This document shows positions 4,801 to 64,000 of a stretch of DNA of 64,000 nt, piece by piece. A program made the position numbers and the translations under genes. The stretch is from Paraspadella gotoi (lineage: Eukaryota; Animalia; Chaetognatha): NCBI GenBank assembly GCA_051294375.1, contig CM119270.1:18397267-18461266 (forward strand), given 5' to 3'. How positions within the stretch are numbered: position 1 is the first letter of the stretch; each line of letters starts with the position of its first letter. The notes below the pieces were generated by a model. The model saw nothing but the letters and a program-made list of their open reading frames with translations, searched no databases and was not told the origin of the DNA.

Positions 4801-6175
4801 CCGTCAGGACAGAGCGGATCTGTTCCGTCGTCAGCGGCTGATTATGTTGAAGGGACCAGAACAAAAACTCGAGGGCGGCAACGACGCAGAGGACGACGTC
4901 GGAGGCGACGGCAGCGAAGTGAACGCGTCGTCCTCCAACACCAGAAACGCGCGACAAATAGACTCCCATTGCGTCCGCGAGATGCATGAGAGCGTCTGTC
5001 CAGTTGGCGTCACGAAATAACTCGTGCGTCGCCCGTTTGGCGTCTCTCTCTTCTGGCGAGAGTCTTTCTCGGTTAAAGAGGACAGAGTAGGGCGGGGAAT
5101 CGGAAGGATACATTCGGGCGACGTTGGTCGCGTGGGCGGAGAGGGCCTCGGCCGTGGCATCAAAGAGCACCCTCCATTGACCGTCGAGATGTCTGTCTGA
5201 GTGACCCAGACTCGCCTTGAAACATTCCGTCAAGTAGCGGAGTTCAAATTCGCGCGACATCATGAGCTCGGCGATGTCGTGATGACCGAGGTGGCGCAGC
5301 ATGGCACCGGCCACGCCCTCCGTCGCGTTCCCGGAGCAAATTTCCTTGAGGATGGAGAGAAAAGCGGAGGCATCGGGGTCGGCGGCGAGGCCGGAGAAAG
5401 TCCAACCCGGAGGAGCGGGGTCGGCGTCGGAATCGTCGTCCTCGTCGTCCGTCGCCAGCGTCTTCCTCAAGAGCACCAGCAGCGACCACAAGTGCGAGTG
5501 TTTCTTGATCAAGCTCTTCTCCCTCATGTGCTCCTCTAGCTTCCTCAAATCCCCCGCTGTGATTCTGAGGCTCTCCGAGGCCGAGCTGGCTTGGGCCAGA
5601 AGAATCTCCGCCCGGGATGTGGCCATCTTGGCGCAGACTCGGGCCAGGGCGGCGCGGTGGGTGGAAAGGAATTTGGTCACGAGGATAGAGAGTAAAGTTC
5701 CGCTTTCGGACGCTGGGACGGCAGACAAAACCTAAAGAAAATTTGAGAATTTTATGAAATAAATATTCATAAATTTTCGGTGATAAAAAAATTAGGTTTA
5801 GATTTTGAGTTACTAACTCAGTTAGCAATCAACCCCGACGGCCCTGGGTAACTTAAAAATTAAGCCTATATTGTGGCGAATCCTAAATTCGCCTCCCGTA
5901 GAGCTTGTTGAAAATCAGCTCGTCCCATTGGCTTGGACAGCTAAGTACTCGTTCACCAACCGTGAGTTCCGGGTTCAATCCCCTCACGGTCACGCTGGTT
6001 AAAGTGCGATGGTGTCGGCATAAACACGCCAGTGACATGGGGTGGTCACTGCAGGTCCAAAGCCCTGAGCGCCAGCTGTCGGAAGATACCTCACACCCTG
6101 GGCATCGCACATGTCCCCCCGTTGCCATAATATCGTAAAATTCGAACATTAGAATTTTATTTCCATCGAAATTGG

Positions 6176-9200: not shown

Positions 9201-12200
9201 GGAGGACCCGGCGTTGCACCCTCCAACACATGGACGACGACGTTGAGGCATTTGGCCACGTGAGTCAGTAAATCCTCCACAAGAGGAACGAGGTTCCTGT
9301 CGGCGACGACGGCCCATTTGGTCTCCGAATCGAGGGAGGCGGCGCTGGAATCCGCGTCCTCGGCGCCGTCTTCCTCTTTCCTCGCCTCTCCGCTCTTTCC
9401 CTGTCCACCCTTCGCCGAACCGTATATCGTCCCCGCCACTAAGTTGCCAGCCAAGAGAAGGGCGTCCTGGTGGACGTTCAAATCGAGGGAGACGACGGTA
9501 TTTCGGACGAGGGTGAGAAAGAACTGCAGCGGTCCCGATCCTGAGGTGAGACGCGAGCCCAGTTGGGAGAAGAGCTCCCTGTCCCAATTGATGTTGCTCC
9601 AGGATCCGCTGACGACGCCGCGACCTCGTTGAGTCCGCGAAGAGGGCGTGGGTTCGTCTTCGTGGATGTCGCCGTCAAAACGGACGCCGAGAGTCCACGC
9701 CACGTTGTACACGGGAGTTGGGTAAATCTCGGCCAAGAGACGGAGAGCCTGGACATGGAAAAGGAGATTTAAAAGTTGTTTTTAAAACCGTTTAAAAGTT
9801 ATAATCAAATTTCATTTTCTTTGTATATATCTCTCTCTTTCTCTCATTTCAAATTTCATTTCAAATCAAATGTCATTTTCTCTCTCTGTCTCTCTCTTAT
9901 CCACTTGACAAGCCCCGGCAATGGCGTGGCGAGACGAGGCGGCGGACTTAAGGCGTTGAACTAGTTTAGGAATGAGGCGACTAAGATTTGACTCGACGAT
10001 GGCAACAAAGGGCGTCGCCGCAGCGTGGTAAGGGAAGGCTGTTCCGTGTAGCAGCGGAGGCAGCGGAAGAAGCCTAATTTTTAATTAAGTTATTAATGTC
10101 AGTTCCAGGGATTCTTCAAAAATTTAGGTTCAACATTTTTAATCTGACAATCTATTTGAGATAATCGATTCATCATCGTGATCTGTACCTGTCATGAGTC
10201 AGAGGCTCAAAGTGCCTCGCGCAAAGTCCCTCCGTCACCCGCAAGAGCGGCGTCTCTTCTTCCGACAGCGGGTGATATAACGTCGCCGCCATCTCGATGA
10301 GCGCCGTCGCCGCCGCCGACCTCACCCGCGGATCCTCGTCACGCGTCGAGTCGACGACGACTTCGAGAATGCGGTCCTGCGCCCGCAGCGCCCCGAGGAA
10401 TCGGTGGGCGCCGCGGGAAAGGGCCGGCACGGCGCCCTCGAGATGGCAAAGGGACGAGAAGTCGAGTTCCGAGAGAAGTTGGAGAAGCTCGACCTTGACG
10501 AGCCAATAGGGATGACGGGAGAGTTGGAGGCTGCGGAGGAGGAGATCCACCGCGGATTCGCTGCGTTTTAAAAAAAATAAGGAATCAGATTAAACGAGGA
10601 CAAGTTTTTCAAGTCTTGAACTTCACAAATCCCTCACAATTCACAATACCTGTGAAAGGATCTTAACAATTGCGGAAGGCACGTTCTCAGCGCGACTAGA
10701 CAAAGTCTCGTTGCGACGGAAGAGTCGTCCTTCAAGACGCGGGACAAAACGCCGACCAAAGATTCCGCCCCTCCTCTTCCTCCGCTCAATGGGGGGAGGC
10801 CCGCCGACGAAATCCCCCAATCTCCTTTGCCGGATGACAGACCGCTTCGGATCAGGTTTCCCAAAACGAGAGCGAGCTGGCCGCGGAGTTGCGGGTCGTG
10901 ATGCCGGGCAAAGGATAAGACGTCGGAAATCTTTTGACGAGGTTCAGCGGCGTCGACCGAGGAGTCGGTGATCTCCTTGAAGACGTCCAAACCGATGACT
11001 GAAGGGCGGAGCGCGACGGCGTGGGAAAGGCAATTGAGGGCGAGGGCTTTGACGGAAACTCGAACGTCTCGATCAGATCTGGAAGATATCAATGTTGTCA
11101 CATCAGCAAAATAGCTTCTCCGACCCTCTTCCGCCCGCCTTCCTTTCCTCACTAATGGCGATACGTTTTAGTTGTTGATTAAGGCGTAGTGAAAGTTGCT
11201 GATCAAAATTCATGAACAGTCTTGTACTAAAGAACCTTGATGTATAATTTTACATAGTACTTACCATAGAAAATGTCAAAATTTTAAAATAGTTTTTTTT
11301 TTTGTTTTGAAAGCAGATTCAAATTCCTCTTAAAAAGTTAATAAAAGAAAATATAAGTCTTAATCAAAAATTATTTCATTAAGTTAGCTAAAAATTAAAA
11401 AAACTATATTATTATATTATATTAAATTGTAAGTTAACTATAATAGTTTTTTAGGATTTTGACCCACTTAATGAAATAATTTTCTATAAAGAGTTATATT
11501 TCCTTCGAGGAATTCGAACCTGCTTTCAAAAATAAGAAAAAACATTTTAAAATTTTAACATTTTCTATGGTGAGTACTATGTATAAATATGGGCGTATGC
11601 GAAAATTTAAAAAAAATATATGATTTTTTTTTTAATTAAAAATGTTCACAGGTACAAGCCTACATGATCTACTATTCGAATTTTGATTAAACTTGATTTT
11701 AATATTTTCGCTATGCTTTATTGTTGATACTGGTCTTGATTTTATTTAGCGGAAATTCAAACTGTATAAAACTGTTTATTTGTAATATCATTAATCGTCA
11801 TCACTGTAATTCCATCTTATTTAGTATTTAGTAATATTGACAAAACGTCAGCGACATTAATGAGAAATTTGTTTAAGCTTGATTAATTTTAATTTTAAGT
11901 TTAATTAATTCGTGATGACCTTTTCCGTCCTTACCTAATGCTGCACTGAAATGATTAAAGCCGATACATCTCGAATTGAAGTAAGCTCATCAAATTTTCC
12001 AACCCGGCCCCAATTCAATATAAACTTCTTAAACCCGCCTTCCCCACCTGAGTCCCCCGCGACGCCCGACCAAGAGAATCTTCGACGCCAAGAGTCGCGC
12101 CACGAACTCGACGGGCGCCTGATCTTCATCGGTGATGGCGCCGATGGAGCCGTCGACGGGCTCGTCCGGCGCGGCGCTACCGGGAGACGCCGGGTGTTGA

Positions 12201-15409: not shown

Positions 15410-17121
15410 TCACCATGTCACCCCCAACCGCTGAGCCTCTTTGAAGTTCTTGTCCGCCACGGCGTCGTCTGCCTTCACTCCACCTAACCCCTCGGCGTAG
15501 GCGTGACCCAAAAGGAACGCCGCCTCTCCGCTGCCCATTTTCGCCGCTCGACGAAGATACTTCACTCCCTTGTGCCCGACGTCGGCGACGACGCCTTCGA
15601 ACCGGCGTCCATCAAAAACGAAGGCGGCGCCGACGTGCAATAGAGCATCGACGACTCCGCCGGAAGCGGCTCGGGTCAAGCGACGGACGCCTTCTGCTAC
15701 GTCGGGCCGATCAACGCCGCGTCCGCGAAGAAGAAAAAAGCCGCAGGCGTAATCGGCTCGAAGATGGCCGGCGTCGGCCGCGCGCTTGAAGAGCTGCAGA
15801 GCGGCGGCGTCGTCTCGTGGGACGCCTTTTCCCGATGAGTAACAGAGGCCGAGATTGAAATGCCCTTTTAGGGAGAGAAAATGGAGTTGTATGGCAACAG
15901 CCGGGTTGCCTGTGATGCCCATTGGGATGGGGCATCTCACTGTTGGCTTTGGGGGCTTCCGACCCTCAGTGACGCCTCCAGTCACTGGCGCGGTTACCCT
16001 AGGACGGTCTCGCTTTGCCAACGCAGAAGGAAGTCGTTAGGACTGTGGATGGAACACTACGCCTGGGATGGTGTGTTCCCCCTCTGAGCCAATGGATTTG
16101 GCTGACGGATGGTGGACGTGAGGCGGTGTGAATATACCGCCACAGTTGATAATTAATCATTGTCGAATCAAATGAAATTAAATTCAAATCCTAATTCTTA
16201 ATAAGATAATAACATTAATTTGAATAAAACCTCGTTACCTGCGGGAGATCCTCGAGTGGCGGCGCACTGAAAAAACCACGCCGCGGCGCCGTAATCTTTG
16301 GTGCCGACGAAGTGATCGGCGACCGCGAGATCGTTGAAGGCGCCGCTGGAGAAGAGAAAGTCTAGATGATGGGGAAGGGTGGAGGGAGGGGGGAGGTTGG
16401 GCGGTGATGGGGGTACGAAACGAGGACGGGAAGCTTTCGGGAGGTTCTGAGAAAAAGGGAGGGAAGGGGACGCCGCGAACGCATTGAGGGGAAAGTCGGA
16501 TAAAGTTTTGGAGGCGGAAAAATGAGGCGAAGGGGAGACGAATTCGACACGGGGTTCCCTTGACGGAAGCCTTTCGGAGGTAACGTCTCCCGAAGCCAGG
16601 GGTGGCGGAAGTCGCTCCGCCAACGGACGCGAGAATGACGGAAGCGTCGGTTGGGTTCCAGATTCGTACCTCGGCGTCGTCGCCGTTGAAAGTTGCCTTC
16701 GAAGCCCGGTGTCGCCCAATCGCTTTTGTGGAAAAACAAAGAGCGGTCCTCCTCTCGCGCCGAACGACCAGGTGGAACACTGGGAGGTTCCGCTAAAGAT
16801 CGGAAATCCGTTGGAGGCGACAACGTCAAAGACTTCCGATTGAGAGCGGTGTTTGACCGATGGATTCAAATCAGATGCTTCCACGGGAAACCCTCTAACG
16901 AAGCATCCAATAAAAGCGTCTTCACCCAGGTCTTGAAATAGGTGAAGATGACGAGATGATGTATCTTCCAGAAGAAAAGCATCGGTGAGGGAGACGACGC
17001 CATCGTCATCTTCAGCCGATGCCGGAGGTACCAATTCCGCGCTTCCACTCGGCGCCGATTCTCGAAAATGGCCGTTACGAGCGTGACGCCAAAAGAGGCG
17101 AAAACGCTCGGCACGCCACAT
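15410..17121 (-). CDS. DELE1: DELE1-like Sel1/TPR-repeat protein with probable mitochondrial presequence; exons 17121-16239 and 15864-15410, ~445 aa
   Basis: Arg-rich N-terminus (MWRAERFRLFWRHARNGHFR), low-complexity middle, and C-terminal Sel1 repeats (AFNDLA..YGAAAWFFQCAATRGSPAG|HFNLGLCYSSGKGVPRD..KGVKYLRRAAKMGSGEAAFLLGHAYAEGLG) in the DELE1 arrangement. Phase-1 GT-AG intron. Orthology is inferred from architecture. Confidence 0.72.
15890..16144 (-). mobile_element. 255-bp solo-LTR-like mini-element (TGTGGCG...GTTGCCATA on minus) with 4-bp TSD, in the DELE1-like intron
   Basis: GTTG at 15886-15889 and 16145-16148. The first ~155 nt are nearly identical to 59490-59645 and to the reverse complement of 60899-61055. 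Confidence 0.85.
15942..16022 (-). ncRNA. Twister ribozyme fold, type P5 permutation
   Basis: GTTGGC(P5) AAA GCGA GACCG TCCTAGGG(P1) T^AA CCGC GCC AGTGAC..GTCACT(P3) G AGGG TCGGAAGC CCCC(P4) AAA GCCAAC(P5). L4 CGG pairs with L1 CCG, a compensatory change relative to the 5994 copy. Predicted cut between 15996 and 15995. Confidence 0.8.
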
Positions 17122-17691
17122 GGCGGAGGCGGTTAAAACCGAAAAGCACGTTTTTATTCTTTAGTTTTTGAAACGTTTTCTTTCTCAGTCTTATTGTAGT
17201 CTGAAAATAAGGACATAACAAAAGTTAACTAGAACAAACAAATAAAGTAATTATCAAATCGCCTTTTTGAAAGACAATCGACATTAGAGTGGAGCAATCA
17301 AGAACAAAAAAATTATTTGAATGATTGAACAAGGATATTTAGATGTGAGATAGTACGATTAACTAGTACAAAAAATATTTTGTTCATATTGTCTCGGGAT
17401 CAGAATAATAAAATATAATATATTTGTAATAATATTCTTATAAAATAGTAAATTTTAAAAATAATTTTTTTAAACTTTTAATAAAGATTCAGATTCTTCA
17501 TAAAAATTTGAACCAAAAATATAAAACATGTTATCAAAAAAGATGAAAATTCATGACTTTTTTATTCTCTGTAGTAAAAACTTATATATGTTAAAACGTC
17601 ATTTTTTGCGATCCAAACATTAAAATATCATATAACATGAAAGTTAAATAAAAAAAAATATTTTAAATTTTTTTGATTTTATAAGGATATT

Positions 17692-17922
17692 ATTTAGAGA
17701 AAAAAACAAAGTTTTTATTAGTTTTTAACGAAATTTGTTTTTTTATTGATAAACAGACATGTTTCGGCTTTAACATTCAAGCCTTCTTCAGCGTTTTCAG
17801 TTTGTGAATTCAAACTGAAAAACGCTGAAGAAGGCTTGAATGCTAAAGCTGAAACATGTCTGTTTATCAATAAAAAACAAATTTCTTTGAAAACTAATAA
17901 AAACTTTGTTTTTTCTCTAAAT
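17692..17922. mobile_element. Palindromic Penelope-like pseudo-LTR pair carrying two outward-facing hammerhead motifs
   Basis: Near-perfect ~115-bp inverted arms centred at ~17808, followed by a duplicated tail ending in (TTA)n (17915-18065). Confidence 0.7.
17820..17865 (+). ncRNA. Minimal type I hammerhead ribozyme motif (mirror copy on the minus strand at 17751-17796)
   Basis: aaacg-CTGAAGA-a-GGCTT(gaatgcta)AAGCT-GAAAC-ATGTC-tgttt, with GUC triplet and palindromic ACATGT. Confidence 0.72.
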
Positions 17923-17958
17923 CATTTACAACAAAAAAGATAGGATTATCACATAAGG

Positions 17959-18067: not shown

Positions 18068-18112
18068 GCTAAAAAAATTTTTAAAGGATTTAAATTTTTT
18101 TTAATTATATGT

Positions 18113-18298
18113 CCTTAGAGCAAAATGGTTTTAATTCATAACGAATTTTTATTTTCATAGCTTTGGATGCAAGCCATCTTCAGCGTCTAGAGCCGAAACA
18201 TGTACGTTTTTCTATGAAAATAAAAATTCGTTGTGAATTAAAACCATTTTGCCTCTAAATACATATAACAACGAAAAAAGAAAGGTTATTACCACTAA
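18113..18298. mobile_element. Rearranged Penelope-like pseudo-LTR (same family as 590-740) with internal inversion
   Basis: Inverted arms ~18115-18160 and ~18212-18258. The hammerhead 5' half is inverted (18161-18187) and the 3' half is forward. Confidence 0.6.
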
Positions 18299-26260: not shown

Positions 26261-27205
26261 AAGTAAAAAAAATGTTTTTGTAAAATTTTTCCATGTAAAA
26301 TACATTGAGTATGTTAAGAAAAAATTATATTACTTTATACGTATGAAAAAATAACATTTGTCCTTATGCACATATCCAAGGGGAGACAATCAGCTTTCAA
26401 ACGCCGTATCATTTTATGCAATTAACCATAGTATAAGAAAATGGCAGTTGGTCAAATAAAAAAATTATTTATTTTAGAGGAGTAAAAGAAAAGTAAAAAG
26501 AAAAGAAAGAAAGGTTACGAGTTTTAGCGATCTTTTCTGGTCAAAAGCCCGTAAGACCATCTACTTAAAAGTTAACCTATCAAAATCGAAATCGATGACA
26601 TGACTTTTTTCACTCGATTTTGAAATTTTTTTTTCCTGGAGGTCTGAGGCACCGTGCCGCCGGTCCGTCCTCCTCCTAAAACGCCCCCGAGAATATTCGA
26701 AGAATATTTGAGGAAACTCCTCAACCCCGGCGAGATGCTTCGGTCGTCCAGGCATGATTTGGTGGCTTGAGCAGATCGACGATCAAATAGTCTCTTTATT
26801 TCTCTGAGTTTATGAAGAGTTTAAAAGAGTACCTTAATAAAATAATCAAAGCATATAGATATTCAAACAGTACAAAAAAGAATAATTATCAAAATTATTA
26901 TTTAAACACTCAAAAGAATTACAAAAATCAGTATAAACTCAAAAACCAATGAATAAACTAAAGCATGAATGACGAAATGATCCAAACGATAAATCCTTGT
27001 GACGAAGTAAAGTTCGAACTCAGATATCACGATTCGCGAGTCTTTGGATCTAACAATTCCCGTCCTAATATTTAGTACCTTAATAAAATAATCAAAGCAT
27101 ATAGATATTCATACAATACAATCAATGAAATACTAACTAATTAATCAAAGAAGCAATATTAAACAAATAAACAAATCCACAAAGAATCCACTAAGCGTCC
27201 GATAA

Positions 27206-29593: not shown

Positions 29594-49478
<19,885 letters not shown>

Positions 49479-49658
49479 CTGGGGGGGAATGGGGGAGAGG
49501 GGAGGAGGAGAACAAGGGCAGGGGGGAAGAAGAAGGGAGGGAGGAGAGGAAAGAGAATGGGAGGAGAGGAGGGGGGAGGCAGGAAGAAGAAGTGTGAAAT
49601 GAGGATTTATTGATAGGAAGAAAAAGGAAAAAAAAAAGGAGAACGAAGAGAGAGAGAG

Positions 49659-49712
<54 letters not shown>

Positions 49713-50497
49713 GAATGAGCTCCGTCGCCACTTCGCCTTCAAAATGAACATTTGAGATAATCGTCCGAGTCAAAAATCCTTTTTCGTTATTCCTCGACTC
49801 AGGAACGGAATCTCCCTCCGTTTTCCCTTTGGTTTGGTTGGGCGTGGCTTTCCTGCGCTGCGGAAATCTTGCGCTGCGGCAATTCAGCGGAGCTGCAGCT
49901 ATTACCGGCGCTGGCAGGCTCGAAGCAGGGAGATAATGTGGCCAAATTTTCCTAAAGTTTTCAGCTTAAGGGGTCTGTGTCATCCAGGGGGTCAAAAAAT
50001 GAAATTCGTCAACTTTGTGAAAATGATTCATTAAGCCAATCATTGCCTGTGAAGTATCACAGCTCTCATCTCTTTCACAACAGCGAAATAATACATTCCG
50101 GCCTTATCACCTCTATACATTGTCTCGTCATAAGCATATTGGCTCTACCACATAAGGAGGAATGACCGAATCTCACTCGCGTTGATCGCTTTAAAAACAG
50201 TGCTACCATGCTTTTCAACTAAAAAATGTCGATAGGCAAGATAAAAAATGGAGAATAATACGTAATGGAATACAACTATGTAAAAATACATGATGAAAAT
50301 TTTCAGTTAGAATTTGACCTAATGAGCAAACAAAGCTAGGTCATAACTTGACACTAAATAATTATTACGTTCCTATCTCTGTGACACTGATTGTTTACTT
50401 ACGTTAATCCCAAGTTGCCACTGCTTTGTGGTCGCGCAGGAAAATCTTTTATTTCTTCGTAACATTAGTAGGTATGAGAAAGAGAGGAGAAAGAGAA

Positions 50498-50528
<31 letters not shown>

Positions 50529-51297
50529 AGAGAAGAGAGAAAGAAAAAGAGAGAGAGAGAAAGAGAGAGACCAAATTGATCATGAGTATTGATTCGAGTC
50601 AGATAGTTGCTATTTTTTATTAACATAAATATTAAATACAAAAGTTTATTTTGTTTATTTTTTAAAACGATTTTTAGTCGGATCTGCTTATAAGCAGATC
50701 CCGACTCTATAATTCACTTTGTCGTCCGTCGGTCCGCACCCTCAATATTTGTCGGGCAACCACATATATCATGTCAGAATATCGAATTATGATAAATGAT
50801 GCAAAAAAAGATGTCCATCTGTCCTTCCGTCCCACCTAACAAAAAAGTCCGATTACTCGAGATTGGATGGATGGATGGAATGAAATTTTGTGTGTATGTA
50901 AGAAGTGTGTGATTGAGCTGGATATAAGTTTTGATGGAATCGTCCGAGTGGAAATGAGTTTTAAATGGAAAAACAAAAAATATAAATCACTATATGAACA
51001 CCAATTGCTCGAGTTGATGGGGCGATTGGACCTAAATTTGTAAGTGGTAGGAAAGTGTGTGATTAGCTGGAATTAAGTTTTCGATGGAATCGTTTGAGTG
51101 GGAAATGAGTTTAAATGGAAAAAACAAAAAACCTGTTTCACTAATTGATTATGCATTTTTTTTTTCCTTTTATATTAAATGGAAATGGCAAGATGTATTA
51201 ATAATCAATAATAATCAGTTAATTAATCAATTAGTCAAAATTTGTAGTCGGCATTGCCTAGGTTCACCCTTGCCTATAAGCATGACTCTTTTTAGTT

Positions 51298-51520
51298 GCG
51301 ACCCAGTGGCTCATTGAGTAAAGCCATCAGCTCATGACCATAGGTACGGGTTCAATCCACCCGATACCTACCCTGCGGGAAGAGTGAGGACGGCCGTAAG
51401 CCACCTTGGGGCGTGCCAAACCCTCAAGCCTGGTTCCAAAGCCCAGGGACTCGTTCCATGTCTGCTTAGAGGGGGTTATAGAAGTATGGATAGTCATCTT
51501 CTGCCCACTTAGCGCCTTAT
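51298..51520 (+). mobile_element. tRNA-headed SINE-like element containing a degenerate twister-like fold
   Basis: A-box-like TGGCTCATTGAG (~51307), B box GGTTCAATCC (51349-51358), then a twister-like motif at 51375-51454. Confidence 0.6.
51375..51454 (+). ncRNA. Degenerate type-P5 twister-like motif
   Basis: GCGGG(P5) AAGAGT GAGGA CGGCCG T^AA GCC ACC TTGGGG..CCCTCAA(P3) G CCTGG TTCCAAAGC CCAGG(P4) GA CTCGT(P5). TCC/GGA pseudoknot is possible, but P2 and T2 are imperfect. Confidence 0.5.
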
Positions 51521-51748
51521 CTTTATTAATCAGTTAATTAATCAATTAGTAAATTAATTAATCCAATAATTAATCAGTTAATTAATCATCAAAACTACAT
51601 TTCTGATCAAATTAATTAATTGCTTAATTAAATAATTAATTAATTAACTTGAATTAATTAATTATAATTAATTATTGATTAATTAATTAACGATAATGAT
51701 TGTGGGCATATCCGACATTGTTTGCTCAAACTTGTTAATGATAGAAAA

Positions 51749-52249
51749 GACGGACATGTTTTCAACTCTTAGGGTTCGAGTCTTCATCAGCGTTTGACAA
51801 TAACAAATATTTGGAGAATAAGTTAAGGAGAGGAAAGAGAGAGATATTGAATATATTGAAAGCAAAAGTGAGGCTTGAGGCCAGGAGGAGAGAGAGAAGA
51901 GAGAGAAAGTTTCCAACAAAGATTGAGTTAAGGACGTGGTCAGATGTGAGGACAGGTAAAGGTAAGAACCGGAAGAAGAAGAAGTAAGTTGATGAAATGG
52001 TGAAAATGAGAGAGAGAGGGAGAGAGAGAAGAAATATCCATTACATTATTCTCTCTCTCTCTCTCTTCTCATTTTCACCATTTCACCACTTACTTCTTCG
52101 TCTTCCCTGTTCTTACCTTTACCTGTCCTCACATCTTTGTTTGGAAACTTTCTCTCTTTCTCTCTCTCTCTTCTCTTTCTTAACTTATGTCTCCAAATAT
52201 TTGTTATTTTCAAACGCTGATGAAGACTCAAACCCTAAGAGTTGAAACA
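51749..52249. mobile_element. Fold-back Penelope-like remnant with hammerhead motifs at both outer ends
   Basis: 51757-52030 is inverted relative to 52050-52249. The minus strand at 51749-51795 reads acg-CTGATGA-a-GACTC(gaaccctaa)GAGTT-GAAAAC-ATGTC-cgt. Confidence 0.62.
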
Positions 52250-53652
52250 AATATTAAATAATAAATTTACATTACATTACGAGAGATAAGTCGAGGCGTC
52301 TTTTGGTCGTCGATATCAGACATCGTTTGAGCGGCAAAACATTATTTTATTATCACTGTGACTATCATTATCAGTAAAGAAAGGATTATCATATCATAAT
52401 GAACAGTATCGCTGGGTTTAATAAAAAAAATTATGGGTATTAGGAAAAGGCAAGTGTTACTGACGGAAAATGATTTAAGATGTTCTAATTAATTCAATTA
52501 TATTTTAACAAGGGTTCTTTCTGAGATTCGATGATGTCAATCCCTTGTTCTCTCTGTCGTCATTGGTCAGTCAAATAATTTTTTTGGGATCCCAAAAAAC
52601 AAAATAATTAAAATTGAAACTAATTACAATAAAAATTACAATAATATGAATTATTCAATTTATTGAAAGTTACATTAGGGACTAATAAGACAAAAATACC
52701 TGAAATGTTAACAGCATTATGATAGTGTATTCACACTGCCTCACCTCAAATTACTATCAACCAACTGCATTGGTTTAGCGTCCACTGAGAATCAAAAATG
52801 CACGCAACCTTCAGGTCAGATGACCACCCCCGTTGCTAAGTGAACGATTTAAAAATTAAGTCTTTGAAGAAATCAGATATTTTTATTTTGTATTTACGAC
52901 ATTGTGGAGCAAAATTTTTTATTAAACACTAAAAGTCTCTTCTATATAATAAAAATTTGACATCTCTTCAAATTAAACTGTATGTATGGCTAGAATCTCT
53001 AAGAAAACAGCAACATTGTCGGCGAAGTGTCATTTGTACCATTATAAAAAAAATTTTTAGTAAATCAGAATAAAAGATTTTTGACTAAGCCTATAAAAAG
53101 TTTTATTACAACAGTTTTTAATTATTATCAATGATAATAGTAGTAGAATTTTGTAATGTTAACAACTTTTGACAGAGTTGTTGTCCATTTGGTTTATTCT
53201 GTCAGTACATAGCGAGGTGGGTAACCTGAGATATACAAAAAACAAAAATTTTATTAAAATCGCATATGTTTGATCATTTAGTAATTTTTTATCAGTTATC
53301 ACCTGATTTGTAATGTAATCATTAAACAAAGATACAAGATTATTACAACTTTACTTACAATTTAGATGGTACATATTTTCAATTTCACAAAACATAAATA
53401 TAATAACTGAATTTTATTGATTGTCCACTGTCTCAAATCTTCAATCAACTTTCTAATGTTGAATTTGATGAAACTGTCATAAAAAAGAATTATTTAAATA
53501 AAAAAAGTTTTTACATAACAATAATTCAGAACTAAGACGTTTTTCTCAAACAATCACTGGACTAACCTTATGCCAATAAATATTCTCCAGCATTGTAAGT
53601 TAATGTTATCAGTTCATTAACATAGTATTAAAAGATCCTAAATTGCTGTAAA

Positions 53653-53945
53653 AACAAGTTGAGCAACAATGTCGGATCTTCCTATGAAATTAATTAATTA
53701 ATTTATCGTTGAATATAATTAATTAATTTTATTTTATTTAATAATTAATTATAAATTTATATACACTTATCATCATCGATGTCCTTAAAATAAAGTTAAA
53801 TGTGACTTTTTTTTTGCATAATTTATCAAATTCGATGTTCTGACATGATATAAGTTTAGTGCCGACAATATTGAGGGGTGGACCGACGGAACTGACAAAA
53901 GTGAATTATAGAGTCGGGATCTGCTGATAAGCAGATCCGAATAAA
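53653..53945 (-). mobile_element. Second, shorter Helentron/HINE-like copy
   Basis: Both ends match 50671-50760 and 51705-51736 in reverse complement. Confidence 0.6.
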
Positions 53946-56332
53946 TTTAGTTGGGTTAATAACTCTACCACATCATACTTAGCAATACTATTTTGCCCCA
54001 CAAATTTCTCTTCTCCAAATTCATCTTGGAGCTTCCCTTATGTTGGATATATTTCCACAAGAATAATAAGTAGCATCCTTGGCAGCGGAAATTACTTGGT
54101 GTCCGGAATCGGAGTAGTCCCCACGGAAGAAATCTTCTAATTTTAGATTCTTGAACAAAAAACTTTTGTACAACAAATAATTTTAAAAAATGTAAATATG
54201 TTTTAAAACAGTTTTTTTTTCATTTTCTTATCAGTAAATTATCTATGATTTAAGAAAGTCACATACAAAGAGTGAGACGACAAAGAGACAATGACAGTAA
54301 GATCGGAAGGGAGAGAGAGAGGGAGAGAGAGAGAGAGAGAGACAGAAAAAACAGGAGAGAGAGACAGACAGACAGACAGTGAGAGAGAGACTGACGTTTT
54401 AATACATACATACAATTATCTCTAATAATTTCGTTGTTAAGAAATAAAAATGGTCTTCTTTGAAACCTAGTAAGAAAATGAAAGTATTAATTACTACTAA
54501 AGACTACTATAATAAAAACGAATACTTATGTGAAAAACAATATGGCGTATTCCAGCTTGAGAAATTTTGTCTGTTTCAAGTAAAATATATCCTAAAAACA
54601 AAAAAATCTAGATAAGCAAACGGAAATGTTTTTGAATCCTTATTCTAATGATTATACTATAACATATTGTTTTACTCACCACAGATGGGCAAATTTCTGC
54701 TTTGCAGTCAGAAGAATAATATAAAAATGTTTGATTCAGTGTAGGAAGGAAAAACGAATAAAAAAAGAAAAACAATCGTTTTGCTTTAAAAAAAAAACAT
54801 CAGTAAAGACGATTCTATCAGCTTTTTTTTCAAAGAATTTCGTTGTTGATTCGCGTATTTCACGTCATGCACGACAAACTCGTTATGTCTTCTCGCTACT
54901 TGCAGTCGTAAAAAAATTGAAAAATCACAAGAAACCAGCGGAGAAAAACTTTTTGTAGAATCTTGCTACTTTTTTTTACATAAAAATCGATAACTCAATA
55001 ACTATCGAATAATAAATATAATGATGCACTTTTGGCTAATTATGCTTTCTCTACAATCTCAAGATGGATTTTGCAATAAGTTAACGACTTATATTTTTAT
55101 TTGCTTTTCAAAAATAGGGCATCATTTTTTGTAACTTTAAAATTATTATTTTTGTAACTAAATGTTGGAATTTTTAAAAATCCATCCATGCATTTTGTAG
55201 ATAGGGAATAAAAGAAACTATGAGCAAAGTTTGGAATTTCTTTGGTCAACGCTGTTTCCCCTGTGGAATTTTTTTAGCCAAAAAAAAACCTTTTCGTCGA
55301 TATCTCAGCGAATGATATGATAAAAAATATTTGAAAATGTTCTGGACAGAGTGGATCGGAGTATCATATCAAGAGATGAAGGAAAAATATATATCTCTTC
55401 TCTATAAAGACCCGATCAATGACACAAAACCCCTTAAATTCCGAAATAAATTTTAAGTTTCAAGATTTTGTTTGTGGATTTTCATTAGAGATTTATAGTT
55501 TAGGGATTAGATACTTAAAATCTTTGGTTCAATAGTTGAGTAATATTAATAAATAATTTAGGATTAGAAACCAGAATGAGAGCGTATTCGGAAAATAAAG
55601 TGCCGTTCTTTTTAGAGGGGGACACCGGCACCTATGTTTCAGACTTCGACCTTGCTTCTGTTGCACGCAGACATGATGCAGTGATCTGATAATAACAAAC
55701 AACTACAACACAACGATAATTTTGCCTTTCGCCAAAGACCACAACGCCGTTCGGGGCCCGCCTCTGGTTCTTCGTAATAAGTTTATCCTTGCGGTTCGGA
55801 CCATAAGACATTCATACTGGGACATCTAGGTGCGAGTCCTTGCAGACTGTTCTCTCCTCCCTCCTCCTCCTCCTCCTCCTCCTCCTTTCTCCCAGCGACG
55901 GTTTTCCTTCCAAGGAAACGAATTTAAACAAGAGAGAAAAGCGGCATCTGGCGACTAACGGGGGAGACCGCCCGTCTGTCTGCCTGTCTGTCCTTCGGTC
56001 CATCAGTGGAAAAAAATACTTAGGGAAGACTCCAGTTTCGTTGGAGAAGATTTGTTCCTACTTGAGAGAATCTAATATTAGTTATATTTATGATAATGTT
56101 TCTATCACCACATATCACTGACCACTCGAGCATTGTAACTCGCACAATAGACGAAACAGACCCAAAGTAAAACGCAAGAAACAATACATACATATATAAA
56201 AAAAAACCGTTTCGCGTCTGACTGACTTTTCTTCAATAAATCACGGATCCAAAAACTGAAAGAAGGAAAAAGAAACAAAAAACTGACGACACCGAAAAAA
56301 AAAATGGCGGATGAAGNNNNNNNNNNNNNNNN

Positions 56333-56368
<36 letters not shown>

Positions 56369-58039
56369 TTCTATTTTGAGTTTTCGTCGGTAGAAGGTCG
56401 AATAAACGATTGGGGGTCGAATGAGCGAAGGAGAAATTTCCATCAATCTGAAACGTTGTTATCGGTACTTATAACTGATCATTAATGTATCGAAAACAAT
56501 ACTTTTCCATAAATTAAAAANNNNNNNNNNNNNNNNNNNNNNNNNTCTTAAAGGCATAGGAATCGAGCCGTACTCTTTGATGATAACGCAGAGGATATTC
56601 AATCGCGATGATAACAAACAGTATGCGATAGCTGAATGCGAGAACAATACACTTAGATGCGGAGATAATAAAAAAACTGATGTGATGATAATCAAATGAT
56701 TGATGTCGATGAAGGTCAATTCATCTGATGTGAGTGATAATTCATTCATGCATATGATGAATAATGCATTCATTGAGATGCCGCGATGAAGTTCATTACA
56801 TGTGACGCGATGCAGGTCATATCCATCGTAATAAAACAAACAATGCGTGTATGAATCGAAAGAGAGAGAGAGAGAGAGAGAGACGAGAGTGAGGGAGAGA
56901 GAGAGAGAGAAAGAACGTGACGAGAGGCTGGTCCAGTTTTCCTCCTTTATATTAAAGGTATAATGCAGAAGCGTGGACCGCTATCAGAGCTGATTGAGGC
57001 TCGTTTGTTCGAAACGTATCTAGGTAGGGCGACACGTCTTTTCTCTTCCTTAATGAATTTTTGATTGTTTGTTAGGACAATCCGGGGTCCAACAATTCAT
57101 ATTGATATTTAACTAATATATAAATATTTATCCCAACTCAAATAATTATTATTTTAAACAAAAGAATAAAAATGATTAAATTACTATACACTTAAAAAAA
57201 TTACCAATTTTTAAAATCGGTAAAAAATTTTTAGGCGAGAATAACAAAACAAGTCAATGTTCTAATCTTCTGGAGCAATATCTGTCCTCTTGCTCAACTC
57301 CTATTTTAGAATATACATTTGCCACATCTAGTGGGCCGACCGGCCAAAGTTACATAATAAACAAAAACAAAAAAATTTTTTTGTTTAGAAAGTTTATATG
57401 CTAATTAAACTTAATCCCGCCGTCATGCCGGACGACTCATAGCAGCTATACTGTAACAGCGAGCAAGCTGATGTTACATGGAATTGCCTGCATTATAGAG
57501 TTATTCTTTCCTTATTTTTCTAGAAAAGGAATCATGAAAATCTGTCGGATGTTAAATTTGGGATTTTGCTATAGAGAAAAAAAAGTAAATGGCGATAGAT
57601 AAAAGTTTTTAGAATGAAAAAAAATAATAAGAATTGTTCAAAAAAGTCGAACGGTCGTACGCATAGAGAGAGAGACCAAGGAGAGAGAGACGGAGAGAGA
57701 GAGAGAGTGAAAAAAAGTGACTAAAAAATTTTTTTTTGTAAAAAAAAAAAGAGACAGAGAGAGAAGAGATAGAGAAGAGAGCCGGAACTCGTTTACTCGT
57801 ACGGCGCAGTGACGGAGGTAAAAAAAGGTGACTAAAAATTTTTATTTTTTGTACAAAAAAAAAGAGATAGAAACGAGAGAAAGAGAGAGACGAGACAGAA
57901 TAGAGAGAAAGATAGATGAGAGAGCAGAGAGAGAGAGAGAGGAGGAGAGAGAGAGAGAGAGAGCCGGAACACACGTGTTTACCTCGTTTACAAGTGAATA
58001 AATTTTTTTTTTTTGTAAAAAAAAAAAGAGAGAGAGAGT

Positions 58040-58089
<50 letters not shown>

Positions 58090-58097
58090 GAGAGAAA

Positions 58098-58136
<39 letters not shown>

Positions 58137-59489
58137 TTTTCCCGCCAACGATACGCAATATTTAGGGTCACTCTTGTTTATATCGGGCGTGATCTCCGGT
58201 CAAGTTGATTTTTTTATACACGTAACCGCGTTATTAGGTCATGTTCCTCGACATTGTTTACTTCGTTGCCCCGCAAACGGCCACGAAATCCAGGTGAAGT
58301 TAGTTATTTCTTCACATTTTCTCATAAAAAAATCACGAAAATCTCAGATGTATAATTTGGGATTTTGTATTGAGAAAGAAGCGCGGAATAAAGTGTGGCG
58401 ATATAACAATTTTTAGAAGGAAAGAAATATAAGAAATTTTTTCAAAAAACGGTGGTCAAAACAAAGCTGGAAAATTTTTTTGTTGTGTAAAAAAAAAGAG
58501 AGAGAGAGAGCAGAGAGAGAGAGGAGAGAGAGAGAGACGGAGGGAGACGGAGCCTGAGAGAGAGAGCAGCGCCTGAACATCTTTTTTTTTAAACGATTCA
58601 GAAAAGGCAGCGCCTGAGATCAATATACTATTTTTTAGAAAGAAAAATAATCAGTAATCTTTTCATAAAAACGACCGATCACGCAAGGAGATCGCACACA
58701 AAGAGAGACGAGAGAGAAACTAACTCGTTTTTATAACGATTCAGAAAAGGCAGCGCCTAAAAAAAAATATATATAATTAAAAAATAAATAAAAGAAAGGC
58801 AAAAAATGTTACAATGTTTACAATTGGACAACATTTTCCAATTATTGTCTCAATCGCAGCTTGTAAAAAGATTTTAATTTTTATTTTGTATTAACAATTA
58901 AGAAATAAGCTTCTCAATTAAAAAAATCCTTTGAGTTCCCTTTTATCTAGAAATTTAAAAAAAATTTTTTGAATTCACTCAATATTACTATACTGCAATA
59001 TGTAAATTAGCTTAAATGCATTCTTATACTAATTGGATAATCTATACATGAGTACTATCAATCTCATTTGCTATCTGTAGTAATCATAATGAAGTGGAAA
59101 TTCAAACAAAAAATACTTAAATCCAAATGTAACTGATGAAACAATATCACCAGCTATTCAAGATGAAAAGGCCATATCTAAATTCTTAACTTACCTATCG
59201 ATCGCACACTTTTGTAAAACTCTTATCATGAATTCATAAAATTTCTTATTTTAAAAAAACGGTAATCACAGCCAAACCTATAAAGCTAGTAGTTTTATAT
59301 ATATGAAAACAGCGTGACCACGACGACGACGACGACGACGACGTCACAACAAGAAGCACACCTAAACATGTATAGAGCCTGACCCGGCTTCGCCGGTCAG
59401 GTCGATAAAAAACAAAAAAAACAAAGGGCATTCTTTTTTCTGAATTTCACGAGCGAAGACACCATCGGCGGTGAATATAAAAGAAGGAT

Positions 59490-59650
59490 TGTGGCGATAT
59501 ATCACACCGCCCTCACGTCCGCCATCGTTCAGCCAAATCCATTGGCTCAGAGGGGGAACACACCATCCCAGGCGTAGTCGTTCCATCCACAGTCCTAACG
59601 ACTTCCCTCAGCCGTGGCAAAGCGAGACCGTCCTAGGGTAGCACGCTACA
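59490..59650 (+). mobile_element. 161-bp TG...CA mini-element with 4-bp TSD GGAT (short relative of the DELE1-intron element)
   Basis: ggat|TGTGGCG...CGCTACA|ggat. The same locus recurs inverted at 60899-61055 and partially at 59885-59936. Confidence 0.8.
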
Positions 59651-60679
59651 GGATAACCATAATGTCTCTCTCTCAATTTGTCGGTTCAACTCCGCCGTCC
59701 ATCGGCTGGAACTTTTACTCCGTCGGTCAACCCTCGATCATTTTCAGCACGAACGAATCCTGGAGATTGAAACCTCTTTCTCTAAAACCCACTCCGCCTA
59801 CAGCTACCGAGGGGATAGACCATTTTTCATCCCTTGCAAAATCCAAGAGATAGAAAAAACAAAAAACAATCCTATCTCTCTCTTACGACTTCCCTCAGCG
59901 GTGGCAAAGCAAGACCGTCCTAGGGTAACCGCTACAGGATAACCATAATGTCTCTTCGTCAATTTGTCGGTCAACTCCGCCCGTCCATCGGTGAACTTTT
60001 TACTCCGTCGGTCAACCCTCGATCATTTTCAGGCGACGAACGAATCCTGGAGATTGAAACCTCTTTCTCTAACAACCCAACTCCGCTACAGCTACCGAGG
60101 GGATAGACATTTTCTATCCTTTTGCAAAATCAAGAGGATAGAAAAAACAAAAAACAATCCCTAAGAGAGAGATTGAAGGAGAAAAAATAATGGACGAGAA
60201 ATGCAGGGGGGGCGTGAGGGGGGGGAGAGAAAGAGATGAGTGGGATAACAGAAAATAGAGAAGGGANNNNNNNNNNNNNNNNNNNNNNNNNGATTGCTAA
60301 TGCGAAATCTGGATGAACCGACATGTCTTTTTTTCCCGCATCGGGGGAAAGGCAGGGAATTGAGTGTAGGGGGGGTTTTTTTGGGGGGGGAGTGAGCCTT
60401 AAAGAGAATTAAGAATATTAAAGCGGAACAGCTCCGCTATCTCACCGTTGGAAAGGGGGAGCAGGTCGGCGGGAGGAGGGCGCGTGCGGCGAGCGGCGTA
60501 GAAGCCGAGTCGACACGGAGTTAGATATTCTCTTGACGAATCCCCCCGAGGTCTTTGGGGAATGTAAAATCCGCGGTTAAGGAAGAGGTAGAAAAAAATA
60601 ATGACGAGAAATGCAGGGGGGGCGCGACGTGAGGGGGGGGAGGAAGCAAATGAGTGGGATAACAGAAAATAGAGAAGGG

Positions 60680-62517
60680 AATTGTTTTTGTTTTTTCTAT
60701 CCTCTTGATTTTGCAAAAGGATAGAAAATGTCTATCCCTCGGTAGCTGTAGCGGAGTTGGGTTGTTAGAGAAAGAGGTTTCAATCTCCAGGATTCGTTCG
60801 TCGCCTGAAAATGATCGAGGGTTGACCGACGGAGGTAAAAAGTTCACCGATGGACGGCGGAGTGACTACAAATTGACGTAGAGACATTATGGTTATCCTG
60901 TACGGGTTACCGAGGACGGTTCTGCTTTGCCACCGCTGAGGGAAGTCGTTAGGACTGTGGCTGAACACTACGCCTGGGATTGGTGTGTTCCCCCTCTGAG
61001 CCAATGGATTTGGCTGAACGATGGCGGACGTGAGGCGGTGTAATATACCGCCACAAATCCTTCTTTTATATTCACCGCCATATGGCTGTCTTCGTCGTGA
61101 AATTAGAAAAAAGATGCCTTTTGTTTTTTGTTTTTTAATTTATGGAAAAGTTTTGTTTTCGATACATTAAATGATCAGTTATAAGTACCGATAATAACGT
61201 TTCAGATTTACTGGAAATTTTCTCCTTCGCTCATTCGACCCCCAATCGTTTATTCGACCTTCTACCGACGAAAACTCAAAATAGAACGTCGGTCGTCGTC
61301 GTCGTCGTCGTTCGTCTGTCGTTCGTCGTCGTCGTCGTCGTCGTCGTTCGTCGTCGTCGTCCGTCGTCGTCGTCTCGGGAAACCCCCGTTTTTCTTCATC
61401 CCGCCATTTTTTTTCGGTGTCGTCAGTTTTTTGTTTCTTTTTCCTTCTTTCAGTTTTTGATCGTGATTTATGAAGAAAAGTCAGTCAGACGCGCGAAACG
61501 GTTTTTTTTTATATATGTAGTGTATTGTTTCTGCGTTTACTTGGTCTGTTGTTTCGTCTATTGTGCGAGTTACAAATCTCGAGTGGTCAGTGATATGTGG
61601 TGATAGAAACATTTTCATAAATATAACTAATATTAGATTCTCTCAAGTAGGAACAAAATTTTCCAACGAAAACTGGAGTCTTCCCTAAGTATTTTTTTCA
61701 CTGATGGACGAAGGACAGACAGGCAGACAGACGGGCGGTCTCCCCGTTAGTCGCCAGATGCCGCTTTTCTCTCTTGTTTAATTCGTTTCCTTGGAAGGAA
61801 AAAACCGTCGCTGGAGAAAGAGTAGGAGGAGGAGGAGGAGGAGGAGAGGAGGAGGGAGGAGAGAAGTCTGCAAGACTCGCTAATGATCCGTTTGGTCTTA
61901 TGTCGAACCGAAAGGAAAACTTATTACGAAAGATACCAGGCGGCCCGAACGTGTTGGTGGTCTTTGGCTGAAAGGCAAAATCTTATTAGTTGTTGTTAGT
62001 TGTTGTTATTATCGATCATGATGTGTCCGTGAACGAAGCAATGTCGAAGGTCTGAAACATAGTGACCGGTGTCCCCCTCTTAGAAAATGAATTCGGCGAC
62101 TTTATTTTCCGAATACGCCCTCATTCTGTTTCTAATTCCTAATTTAATTTTATATCCAAATATTTGACCAAAGATTAATATCTTAATCCCTAACTATAAA
62201 TCTCTAATGGAAAATCCACAAACTAACGCATTAACAAATCTAAACTTAAAAATTTATTTCGGAATTTAAGCTGAAAACTTTGGCCACATTATCCTCCCTG
62301 CTTCGAGCCTGCCAGCGCCGGAATTACTTCATCTCCGCTGAATACTGCCGCAGCGCTAGGAGCCGCAGCGCAGGGAAAGCCACGCCCCAACCAAACCAAA
62401 GGAGAAAACGGAGGGAGATTCACTCCTGAGTCGAGGAATAACGAAAAATTTTTTGACTCGGACGATTTTATTCCAAATGTTCATTTTTGAAGGCGATAGT
62501 GGCGACGGAGCTCATCG

Positions 62518-62561
<44 letters not shown>

Positions 62562-63847
62562 TCTTCTCTTTCTCTCTCGTTCTCTCTCGTTTTTTCCTTT
62601 TCTTCATATCATCAATCTCATTTCACACTTTCCTTTCTTCCTCTCTTCCACCCTCCCTCCCCTCCTTCCTCCCATTCTCCTTCCCCTCCTCCCTCCCTTC
62701 TTCTTCCCCCCTCCCCTTTCTCCTCCCTCCCCTCTCCCCCAGTTCCCCCCCGCAGGGTCAGCTCGTCAACCTGAAGATCAAAGCCTGCAGCCTTCGTCGA
62801 GAGATCCGCCACCTGAGCGCGTCCAAGAGGCCAACACCAAAGCATCCAAGAGGCCATCCACGAAGTCTCTTTTCCAAGATCGAGCGGGCCGCCGCCACCG
62901 TCCCGGGCCCAAACGAACACCCCCGTCCAGGCCAGAGAATAAAGGTGAGGAAAAGGGGGGGGTCAAAGGTGAGGCTTGGATGGGGACATCGGGCGTATGG
63001 GTGAGAATGTTCAAGATGGTTTAGTAAGGATGACAATTTTGAAGCAAACAAGAATAATTGTGCGGCAAATCTATGGAGTTGAACTCGCCTTACGGCAGAA
63101 AACACAAATTGTGAGGTTTTTTAGGCAATGGAACGAATCGATTTATCTTGGGTTAAGGATCGGAGATTTAGTTCATCTCGGGGTTGAAGTCGAATCAAAA
63201 AGAAAGTCAGAAACTGAGAGAGAAAAAAATGAAGAGAAGAAAAAAAAAGTAGAAATGAATGGATTTGCGGTAAATTGGCGGTGATAAAGACTAAAGAGAG
63301 AGGATTGCCGATTTTGAGGTAAGGCTCATGGCGGATGGAAGCGGTAGATGGGATTGGGATGGAGGGTCGGAGGGGTGAAGGGGCGGTAAAGGGGGAGAGA
63401 GGTAAAGGGGGCGAAGGGGTGTAGGGAACAAAGAGGCGCAAAGGGCGGCTGTTAGGTAATGCAGGGTGGAAGTTGTGTTACAGAGGCCGAAGAGCTGGTA
63501 AAGGGGGCATACGAAGGAATAAAGGGGGCAGAGGGGGATAAAGGGGTCACAGAGAGCGAAGGGGCCCAGAGGGGTTAAGAGGCAAAGAGTCGGGATTTGC
63601 GAAGAGAAGGAGGATTAAAGAAGAGTTTTTTTTTCTGCGGAAAGAAAAAACTCTCGACCGGATCACAAAATAAAGTCAGGAGTCTTGACTCCGTCACCCG
63701 CCGAGTCTTTCTGCTGATTACGATCGGTTGAAAACTGTTTGACTGGTGAACACCTTTCTGTGACTGTGGGGGGATTTATTTTTATTGGTCGTTGTTCCTC
63801 TTTTTTACTTATTTATTATTTTGGGAGCTCAATGATTCCGAACAGAA

Positions 63848-63878
<31 letters not shown>

Positions 63879-64000
63879 ATACAACGACGAAGACGACGAC
63901 GAATGTCTATATTATCATTTTTCGTTTTCAGTTCTCTTTCTTTCTTCTTTCTTTCTTTCTTTCTTCCTTTTTTCTGTCTTTCCTTCCTCACCCCTCACCC
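60680..64000 (+). other. Inverted, error-rich second copy of the ~46960-60160 region, lacking two large insertions; includes an SRCIN1-like exon copy at ~62756-62944
   Basis: Reverse-complement matches: 63660-64000 to 46965-47320; 62270-63660 to 47460-49969; 61135-62270 to 55434-56520; 60680-61135 to 59405-59870. Confidence 0.85.

Follow-up and report, generated by a model that had tools for sequence, protein, structure and literature searches.

In the literature searched, as far as its text was available, LTR elements with a ribozyme are plant elements carrying a hammerhead, animal retrozymes are non-LTR elements, and animal twisters are tied to LINE 5' ends or stand without an assigned role. 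In plant LTR retrozymes each LTR holds a ribozyme, the TSDs measure 4 bp and solo LTRs occur (accessible text of PMC4918200), and a 2026 preprint on animal retrozymes (10.64898/2026.07.22.740005) places LTR retrozymes primarily in plants, with zero occurrences of 'twister' in the part of its text that was available. The LTRs of the animal Helenus TRIMs contain tRNA boxes; these elements make 4-bp TSDs and are partnered with Gypsy, and both Helenus and Ajax frequently occur as solo LTRs (passages of PMC10886601). In the available passages of PMC8501958, PMC7761336, PMC6765202 and PMC13725137, twisters appear with non-LTR elements only. RtcB ligates the monomers of animal retrozymes, and tandem twisters give RNA circles in mammalian cells (passages of PMC7229834).

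Against this background we analysed a 64-kb window (the whole stretch of DNA under study), for which a preliminary description had reported two units of ~255 bp with shared ends, at 5872-6129 on the plus strand and 15890-16144 on the minus strand, each flanked by a different perfect 4-bp TSD (ATAT and CAAC). The coordinates, the TGTGGCG start and GTTGCCATA end common to the two copies, and both TSDs were verified; the copies are called E1 and E2 below.

5872-6129, plus strand: E1, a complete 258-bp unit with TG...TA ends, antisense in a huntingtin intron (6273-5732, minus strand)
5868-5871 (left) and 6130-6133 (right), plus strand: TSD ATAT of E1
5875-5893, plus strand: 5' hairpin of E1
16144-15890, minus strand: E2, a complete 255-bp unit, sense in an intron of a Sel1-repeat gene (16238-15865)
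16145-16148 (upstream) and 15889-15886 (downstream), minus strand: TSD CAAC of E2, read on the minus strand

E1 and E2 are identical at 164 of 272 alignment columns (60%), and the 5' hairpin is present in the minimum-energy structures of both. Given the local base composition, a 4-bp TSD match would arise by chance with a probability of ~0.007 and ~0.010 for the two copies, which are the only two with TSDs shown; the contigs surveyed below do not pair both flanks of one copy. The termini are TG...TA and not the canonical TG...CA, and the family contigs likewise end after TA; TGTA is known as one of the rare non-canonical LTR termini, reported from plants (available text of 10.1101/137141). The 5' end fits TGTNR, the pattern of Gypsy LTRs (passages of PMC2836005). 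The inverted repeat at the termini extends over just 6 bp and is imperfect, with one mismatch.

The neighbouring exons, which place the host among the animals, belong to huntingtin (identified with Pfam), a Sel1-repeat protein and an ABC transporter, the ABCC exon having its best matches, at 37-49% identity, mostly in insects and other arthropods. The huntingtin intron with E1 has an apparent GC donor at 6273, and the Pfam Htt_bridge profile runs on across this intron. E2 makes up about two thirds of the Sel1-gene intron (15865-16238, minus strand) and ends 25 nt before the splice acceptor. As E2 lies there in the sense orientation, an active twister would cut the pre-mRNA; the family thus inserts in introns in both orientations, and the effect of a sense copy on the host pre-mRNA is testable.

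Both units contain a predicted twister core.

5994-6076, plus strand: E1 twister core, type-P3, with the predicted cut at 6021/6022, the conserved GA at 6008-6009 and a weak Rfam twister-P1 match
16022-15942, minus strand: E2 twister core, type-P3, with the predicted cut at 15996/15995

The position of the conserved GA was assigned from the usual twister numbering. The predicted scissile U/A is nt 150 of the unit in E1 and nt 149 in E2. Read 5' to 3', both units have P3a, P2b, GA, T1b, a 2-bp P1 with a tetraloop, UAA, P2a and GC, followed by a 7-bp P5 hairpin, P4a, the L4 loop (T1a and AAGC), P4b and P3b. Both pseudoknots are intact in E1 and E2 (T1 3/3, T2 2/2 paired), as are the catalytic bases, and the conserved L1 and L4 bases are present in both (UAA at the cut site, GA after P2, U...AAGC in L4), with L4 and the 5' L1 bases aligning to the Rfam twister-P1 consensus. 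Pairing in the stems is less regular: P1 has 2 bp, P2 pairs at three of four positions in both copies, with the mismatch next to L1, and P4 is fully paired (4/4) in E1 and mismatched at its outer pair in E2 (3/4). Natural twisters tolerate mismatches in P1, P2 and P4, but not in the pseudoknots and catalytic bases (available text of PMC11662667). Type-P3 is defined by RNA ends in stem P3 (available text of PMC5408937), and because the E1 and E2 ribozymes have their ends in P3, with loops closing both P1 and P5 (P5 as a hairpin with a loop of 7-8 nt), the ribozyme is a predicted type-P3 twister and not type-P5. The full type-P5 fold proposed earlier is therefore retained as a twister core with T1 and T2 parsed in both copies; its type and its unbroken P2 and P4 are not.

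The preliminary description had also claimed compensatory changes in T1, P2, P4 and P5. On the two-sequence alignment 41 of the 44 pairing cells are paired (P3 left out), and two-sided changes between E1 and E2 occur at 5 of 22 pairs (two in T1 and one each in P2, P4 and P1), a number reached by 18 of 500 shuffles, while slid registers give none. P3 was excluded from this count owing to the alignment register; it is paired at 6/6 positions in both copies, with a pairing probability of 0.99 in the isolated cores, and adds one further two-sided change, making six in all. P5 is identical in the two copies, all 7/7 pairs being invariant, and so is without covariation. The claim thus stands for T1, P2 and P4, extends to P1 and P3, and falls away for P5.

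An exhaustive search of both strands with a twister descriptor gave two matches in the window, E1 and E2, against one in 100 shuffled windows. The covariance-model check suggested in the preliminary description turned out negative: Rfam gave no match at gathering score in the 64 kb, and the best score was a partial twister-P1 match of 15-23 bits against a threshold of 67.2. A covariance model built from the two sequences found broken copies only and no further full core in the window, and Rfam scans of the window and units found no hammerhead, whose place is occupied by the twister. In ViennaRNA, which does not model pseudoknots, forcing the twister helices costs 6-10 kcal/mol over the minimum, and the P2 and P4 pairing probabilities do not exceed 0.32. 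An L4-like word at 26539 was considered and put down to chance. Since standard Rfam scans miss this family, others like it may have escaped notice elsewhere among the invertebrates.

We then turned to contigs from 6 of 11 public sequencing runs of the source animal (runs are denoted by X and a number). For each unit the matches come from four runs, with 8376, 12508, 2978 and 488 contigs for E2, and 2934, 1145, 1260 and 247 for E1. Depth over the E2 family drops to background at 15890 and 16144, where the numbers of loose-ended contigs at the 3' and 5' ends are at least 238 and at least 163 in X4, and at least 250 and at least 182 in X3. The flanks of the E2 family are AT-rich and mutually discordant (agreement 0.41-0.48), and the majority at the exact ends reads ATAT in 4/4 runs, both in the last four letters before 15890 and in the first four after 16144. 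E1-family contigs end at 5872 (at least 97 contigs) and at 6129 (at least 45) in X4. Such sharp ends at many discordant flanks mean that the twister-bearing family occupies hundreds of independent insertion sites, and this bears out the earlier view of a dispersed family with an integrase-like footprint and ends at exact coordinates. Judged from the density in the window, thousands of copies are likely. Summed contig depth was set aside as a copy number (0.5-2.4 million in X4 against contigs of ~100-400), as was X9 depth as a sign of expression, X9 being only guessed to be RNA. Among the joints listed, no contig bridges the two flanks as an empty site would; the flanks were poorly covered, and no weight is placed on this.

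Fourteen places in the E2 family show variation of at least 5%. The 74 constrained core positions contain none of them, two lie in the P5 loop and 12 are upstream; the naive p for this depletion of the core is 0.007, but the places are not independent and reflect subfamilies. At position 6007, the P2 mismatch of E1, ~99% of the depth in the DNA runs X4, X5 and X8 carries the pairing base, and this is the only frequent in-core difference of the E1 family in run X4 among the differences listed. The six two-sided changes, the core free of variable places and the pairing base at 6007 would all be expected of a twister under selection, and we count them as support for it. C>T and G>A account for many of the E1-family variants and in several cases affect CG sites, a hint of methylation decay. 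E1-type subfamilies differ strongly in the last 40 bp, and depth falls about seven-fold after 6090.

The twister-bearing family is thus real and abundant, and it is probably undescribed. No twister in an LTR element was found in full-text literature searches, which covered titles, abstract starts and passages, with Repbase, Dfam, the PMC11662667 supplement and subscription papers (the original twister paper included) lying outside them. The twister-core pattern had no match in viral contigs, metagenome contigs or prokaryote genomes, and the element 5'-end pattern had none in viral contigs. The 3'-end pattern matched 21 metagenome loci that we regard as chance, with the L4 core upstream in 0/21 and a best BLAST E of 0.17.

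Several broken or decayed sequences in the window resemble the two complete units.

59490-59646, plus strand: broken E2-type copy, 5' half (~155 nt), stopping ~6 nt past the predicted cut site
59882-59932, plus strand, and 61055-60902, minus strand: repeats of the broken E2-type copy, in duplicated, error-rich sequence beside an N gap
52718-52840, plus strand: old short relative, E2-like in the 5' 60 nt and with a similar 3' end, without twister or TSD

The broken E2-type copies at 59.5-61.1 kb are probably one locus. The copy at 59490 was considered as a cleavage product and rejected, as its break lies ~6 nt after the predicted cut and not at it. Just upstream of it (59461-59489, plus strand; 61056-61085, minus strand) is an inverted near-copy of element nt 9-23 followed by a purine run, and in one of the duplicates the element's six terminal letters and then TGG precede the inverted near-copy; this spacer could be a tiny PBS/PPT spacer or the result of a local template switch. 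The region from 47000 to 64000 has many kilobase-scale inverted or tandem duplicates with indels and N gaps (for example 48915-49950 with 63319-62275, 55433-56520 with 62270-61132, and 59406-59879 with 61137-60671), which are probably assembly or amplification artefacts.

The old relative at 52718-52840 has an nhmmer E of 0.014 and an alignment score of 48, against a shuffle maximum of 30. A further stretch at 51243-51599 (plus strand), bounded by TGTAGT...ACTACA, has tRNA-type A and B boxes at 51307 and 51350 and twister-like pieces in the type-P3 order, namely GA and a T1 partner at 51386, a P5-like hairpin, and P4/L4 at 51429-51447. Neither P2 nor the 5' side of T2 forms in this stretch, it has no TSD, and Rfam shows nothing relevant in it. 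A relaxed descriptor, chosen post hoc, matches only E1, E2 and this stretch (0.09 matches per shuffled window), which is possibly a decayed TG...CA relative. Long imperfect palindromes at 17689-17925, 11244-11590, 18105-18268 and 51760-52247 are possibly MITEs or foldback elements.

Upstream of the twister, the units also contain sequences resembling tRNA-type promoter boxes, identified with the standard A- and B-box patterns.

5929-5981, plus strand: E1 box region, with a weak A-box-like word at 5929 and a perfect B box at 5973-5981
16091-16081 and 16055-16047, minus strand: E2 A box and B box, 36 nt apart

The E2 boxes have one mismatch in all, and 2 of 500 shuffles are as good; for the E1 pair this is true of 177/500 shuffles, which is not significant. 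The A box lies ~55 nt inside the element. The Helenus words TRGCY and GGTTC both occur in E1. There is no TTTT terminator on the sense strand of E1 or E2, and neither ARAGORN nor Rfam called a tRNA in the units.

On balance we favour, with somewhat more confidence than doubt, a reading of E1 and E2 as solo LTRs of a non-autonomous, protein-free LTR retrozyme that is mobilised by Gypsy and carries a twister and, probably, a Pol III promoter. Transcription of a two-LTR parent would start in the 5' LTR, probably at the tRNA-type A and B boxes recognised by RNA polymerase III, and the twister would cut the transcript in each LTR. An RtcB-type ligase would then close the cut RNA into a circle, as it does for hammerhead retrozymes, and the RT of a helper Gypsy may copy this circle from PBS and PPT, with its integrase inserting the DNA at ATAT-like sites. 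Single units would arise through LTR-LTR recombination or directly as short cDNAs, and would be dead ends, since one ribozyme makes no circle and an internal promoter misses the first ~50 bases. What the window and contigs display of such a cycle is its DNA anatomy, the RNA steps being carried over from other systems. The family would work like an LTR retrozyme, yet its ribozyme is not the hammerhead of that class, and its two-LTR form is putative.

The place at which a two-LTR form might be glimpsed is 16145, immediately upstream of the E2 5' end. Here the first 12 letters of the majority flank are common to X3 and X9, while X4 shares four of them and X7 none, and the loose ends are shorter than elsewhere (median 85-146 in X3, X4 and X9, against 216-255 in the other end rows). 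In reverse complement, nine of ten bases of the shared flank are purines, and the run stops three bases short of the element. This flank, a majority line drawn from 8-32 mixed contigs with an agreement of 0.43-0.57, was never seen as one whole sequence; it differs from the element's own 3' end, and it fits a multi-copy interior that ends in a PPT in a minority of E2-type contigs. A PBS was not seen in the family contigs, where it would be hidden among many unique downstream flanks, and the 64-kb window holds no two-LTR copy around an interior with PBS and PPT.

More tentatively, and as something we would hold possible without expecting it, the family may be an animal retroelement reduced to the minimum, with integrase ends, a Pol III promoter and a twister all packed into a single 255-bp unit, and in which small twister-cut circular RNAs would be integrated by the Gypsy integrase mostly as monomers straight from the circle. 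If true, such a monomer-circle element would do in nature what engineered twister constructs do in RNA circularisation, and it would be the first retrozyme whose ribozyme is not a hammerhead.

Among the rival explanations, the one that survives best, while still unlikely, is that the 255-bp unit is the whole element, with head-to-tail or nearly head-to-tail masters from which the twister would release unit-length circular RNA, and with monomer cDNAs integrated directly and little or no internal region. The unrelated flanks in nearly all of the end rows listed, with no PBS visible, and the single state of both complete window copies with their TSDs are as this would have it, and the plant retrozyme model permits a solo-LTR-sized cDNA from a circle (accessible passages of PMC4918200). 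Yet no head-to-tail junction was found among the loose ends and joints listed, the shared flank at 16145 is not the element's own 3' end, and a source of primer would be required. The broken copy at 59490 can be read either way, as no more than ~24 nt, resembling a very small spacer of PBS and purines, separate it from six nt that match the element 3' end, but the region is error-rich and has no upstream LTR.

We regard it as improbable that E1 and E2 are solo LTRs of an autonomous Gypsy element, in whose LTR the twister would process the 5' end of the gag-pol RNA. This reading shares the evidence of the ends, the TSDs and the PPT-like flank, and there is a precedent in the twisters that process 5' ends of autonomous non-LTR elements (passages of PMC8501958), but if each LTR were cut, the RNA would lose the terminal redundancy on which normal LTR replication depends (an argument made for retrozymes in the available text of PMC4918200), and Pol III boxes are ill-suited to a long coding RNA (available text of PMC10886601). 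Nor does the window contain a coding remnant: Pfam found no RT or integrase, and huntingtin only, in the 65 of 94 window ORFs that passed the filter, the 29 ORFs outside this set lying at 8.5-19.1 kb around the huntingtin, Sel1 and ABC genes, with two of them scanned separately.

A non-autonomous cut-and-paste DNA transposon, that is a Ginger-like MITE with the twister as a passenger, is harder still to sustain. A passenger would not hold pseudoknot covariation over 40% divergence, and Ginger elements have TIRs of ~40-270 bp and target CCGG/CCGT or RTATAY, against a 6-bp repeat with a mismatch, ATAT as the preferred site and the TSDs ATAT and CAAC here. In its favour are the sharply bounded single units, their 4-bp TSDs, their AT-rich targets and TGTNR 5' end, and the preference of Ginger2 for AT-rich 4-bp targets (Ginger data from the available text of PMC2836005). 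The TG ends and 4-bp TSDs had been taken to indicate a Gypsy- or Ginger-type integrase, and of this the integrase-like footprint is upheld while Ginger, given the 6-bp imperfect inverted repeat, is disfavoured.

That the units are tRNA-headed SINEs whose body is the twister, and that an RTE-type LINE inserted them through target-primed reverse transcription, is very improbable, since the Pol III boxes, the twister and the twisters reported at RTE 5' ends (passages of PMC8501958) stand against two ends that are exact in hundreds of contigs, the lack of a tail, a TSD of 4 bp and an A box ~55 nt inside the element. The cassette itself may nonetheless have come from a SINE and been taken up by an LTR afterwards, a course of events proposed for Helenus.

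The LTR-retrozyme reading of E1 and E2 suggests an independent animal origin of this lifestyle, based on another ribozyme, and offers a concrete and testable biological role for the type-P3 twister.

In comparison with known systems, as described in the accessible parts of the papers cited, the plant LTR retrozymes (PMC4918200) are similar in having a non-coding unit, a ribozyme in an LTR-like repeat, 4-bp TSDs, many solo units and a proposed Gypsy helper. They differ in having a type III hammerhead and a unit of 300-400 bp, whereas E1 and E2 are animal units of 255 bp with a predicted type-P3 twister, TG...TA ends and tRNA-type boxes, for which the two-LTR form, the PBS and circular RNA are putative. 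Ginger1 and Ginger2 (PMC2836005) share the TGTNR 5' end and the 4-bp TSD, but have long TIRs and other target motifs, and no ribozyme is described for them in the available text. The twister T-variants of Perere-3/RTE LINEs (PMC8501958, PMC7761336) likewise tie a twister to an animal retroelement; there, however, the twister heads a coding non-LTR element and its cut site adjoins the TSD, whereas in E1 and E2 the cut is at nt 149-150 inside a non-coding unit with fixed ends and no ORF. Animal non-LTR retrozymes (PMC7229834, 10.64898/2026.07.22.740005) are also small, abundant, non-coding ribozyme repeats, but they are arranged in tandem, carry type I hammerheads, have longer TSDs and are linked to Penelope, whereas single units, a twister and a 4-bp TSD are found here. 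Finally, Helenus/TRIMp3 (PMC10886601), with two LTRs, a PBS and a PPT in less than ~1.3 kb, resembles what is seen or proposed for the family in that its animal LTRs are short and contain A and B boxes (significant in E2 and weak in E1), its TSDs are 4 bp, it depends on Gypsy and many of its LTRs are solo, although the accessible text mentions no ribozyme, the animal LTRs shown there end in CA, a motif search of its supplement did not find the GTTGCCATA end, and the tRNA likeness of E1 and E2 is confined to the boxes. Some Helenus LTRs start with TGTGG, as do E1 and E2, and several end in a C-rich run followed by GTTACA, which is a further likeness to the units described here.
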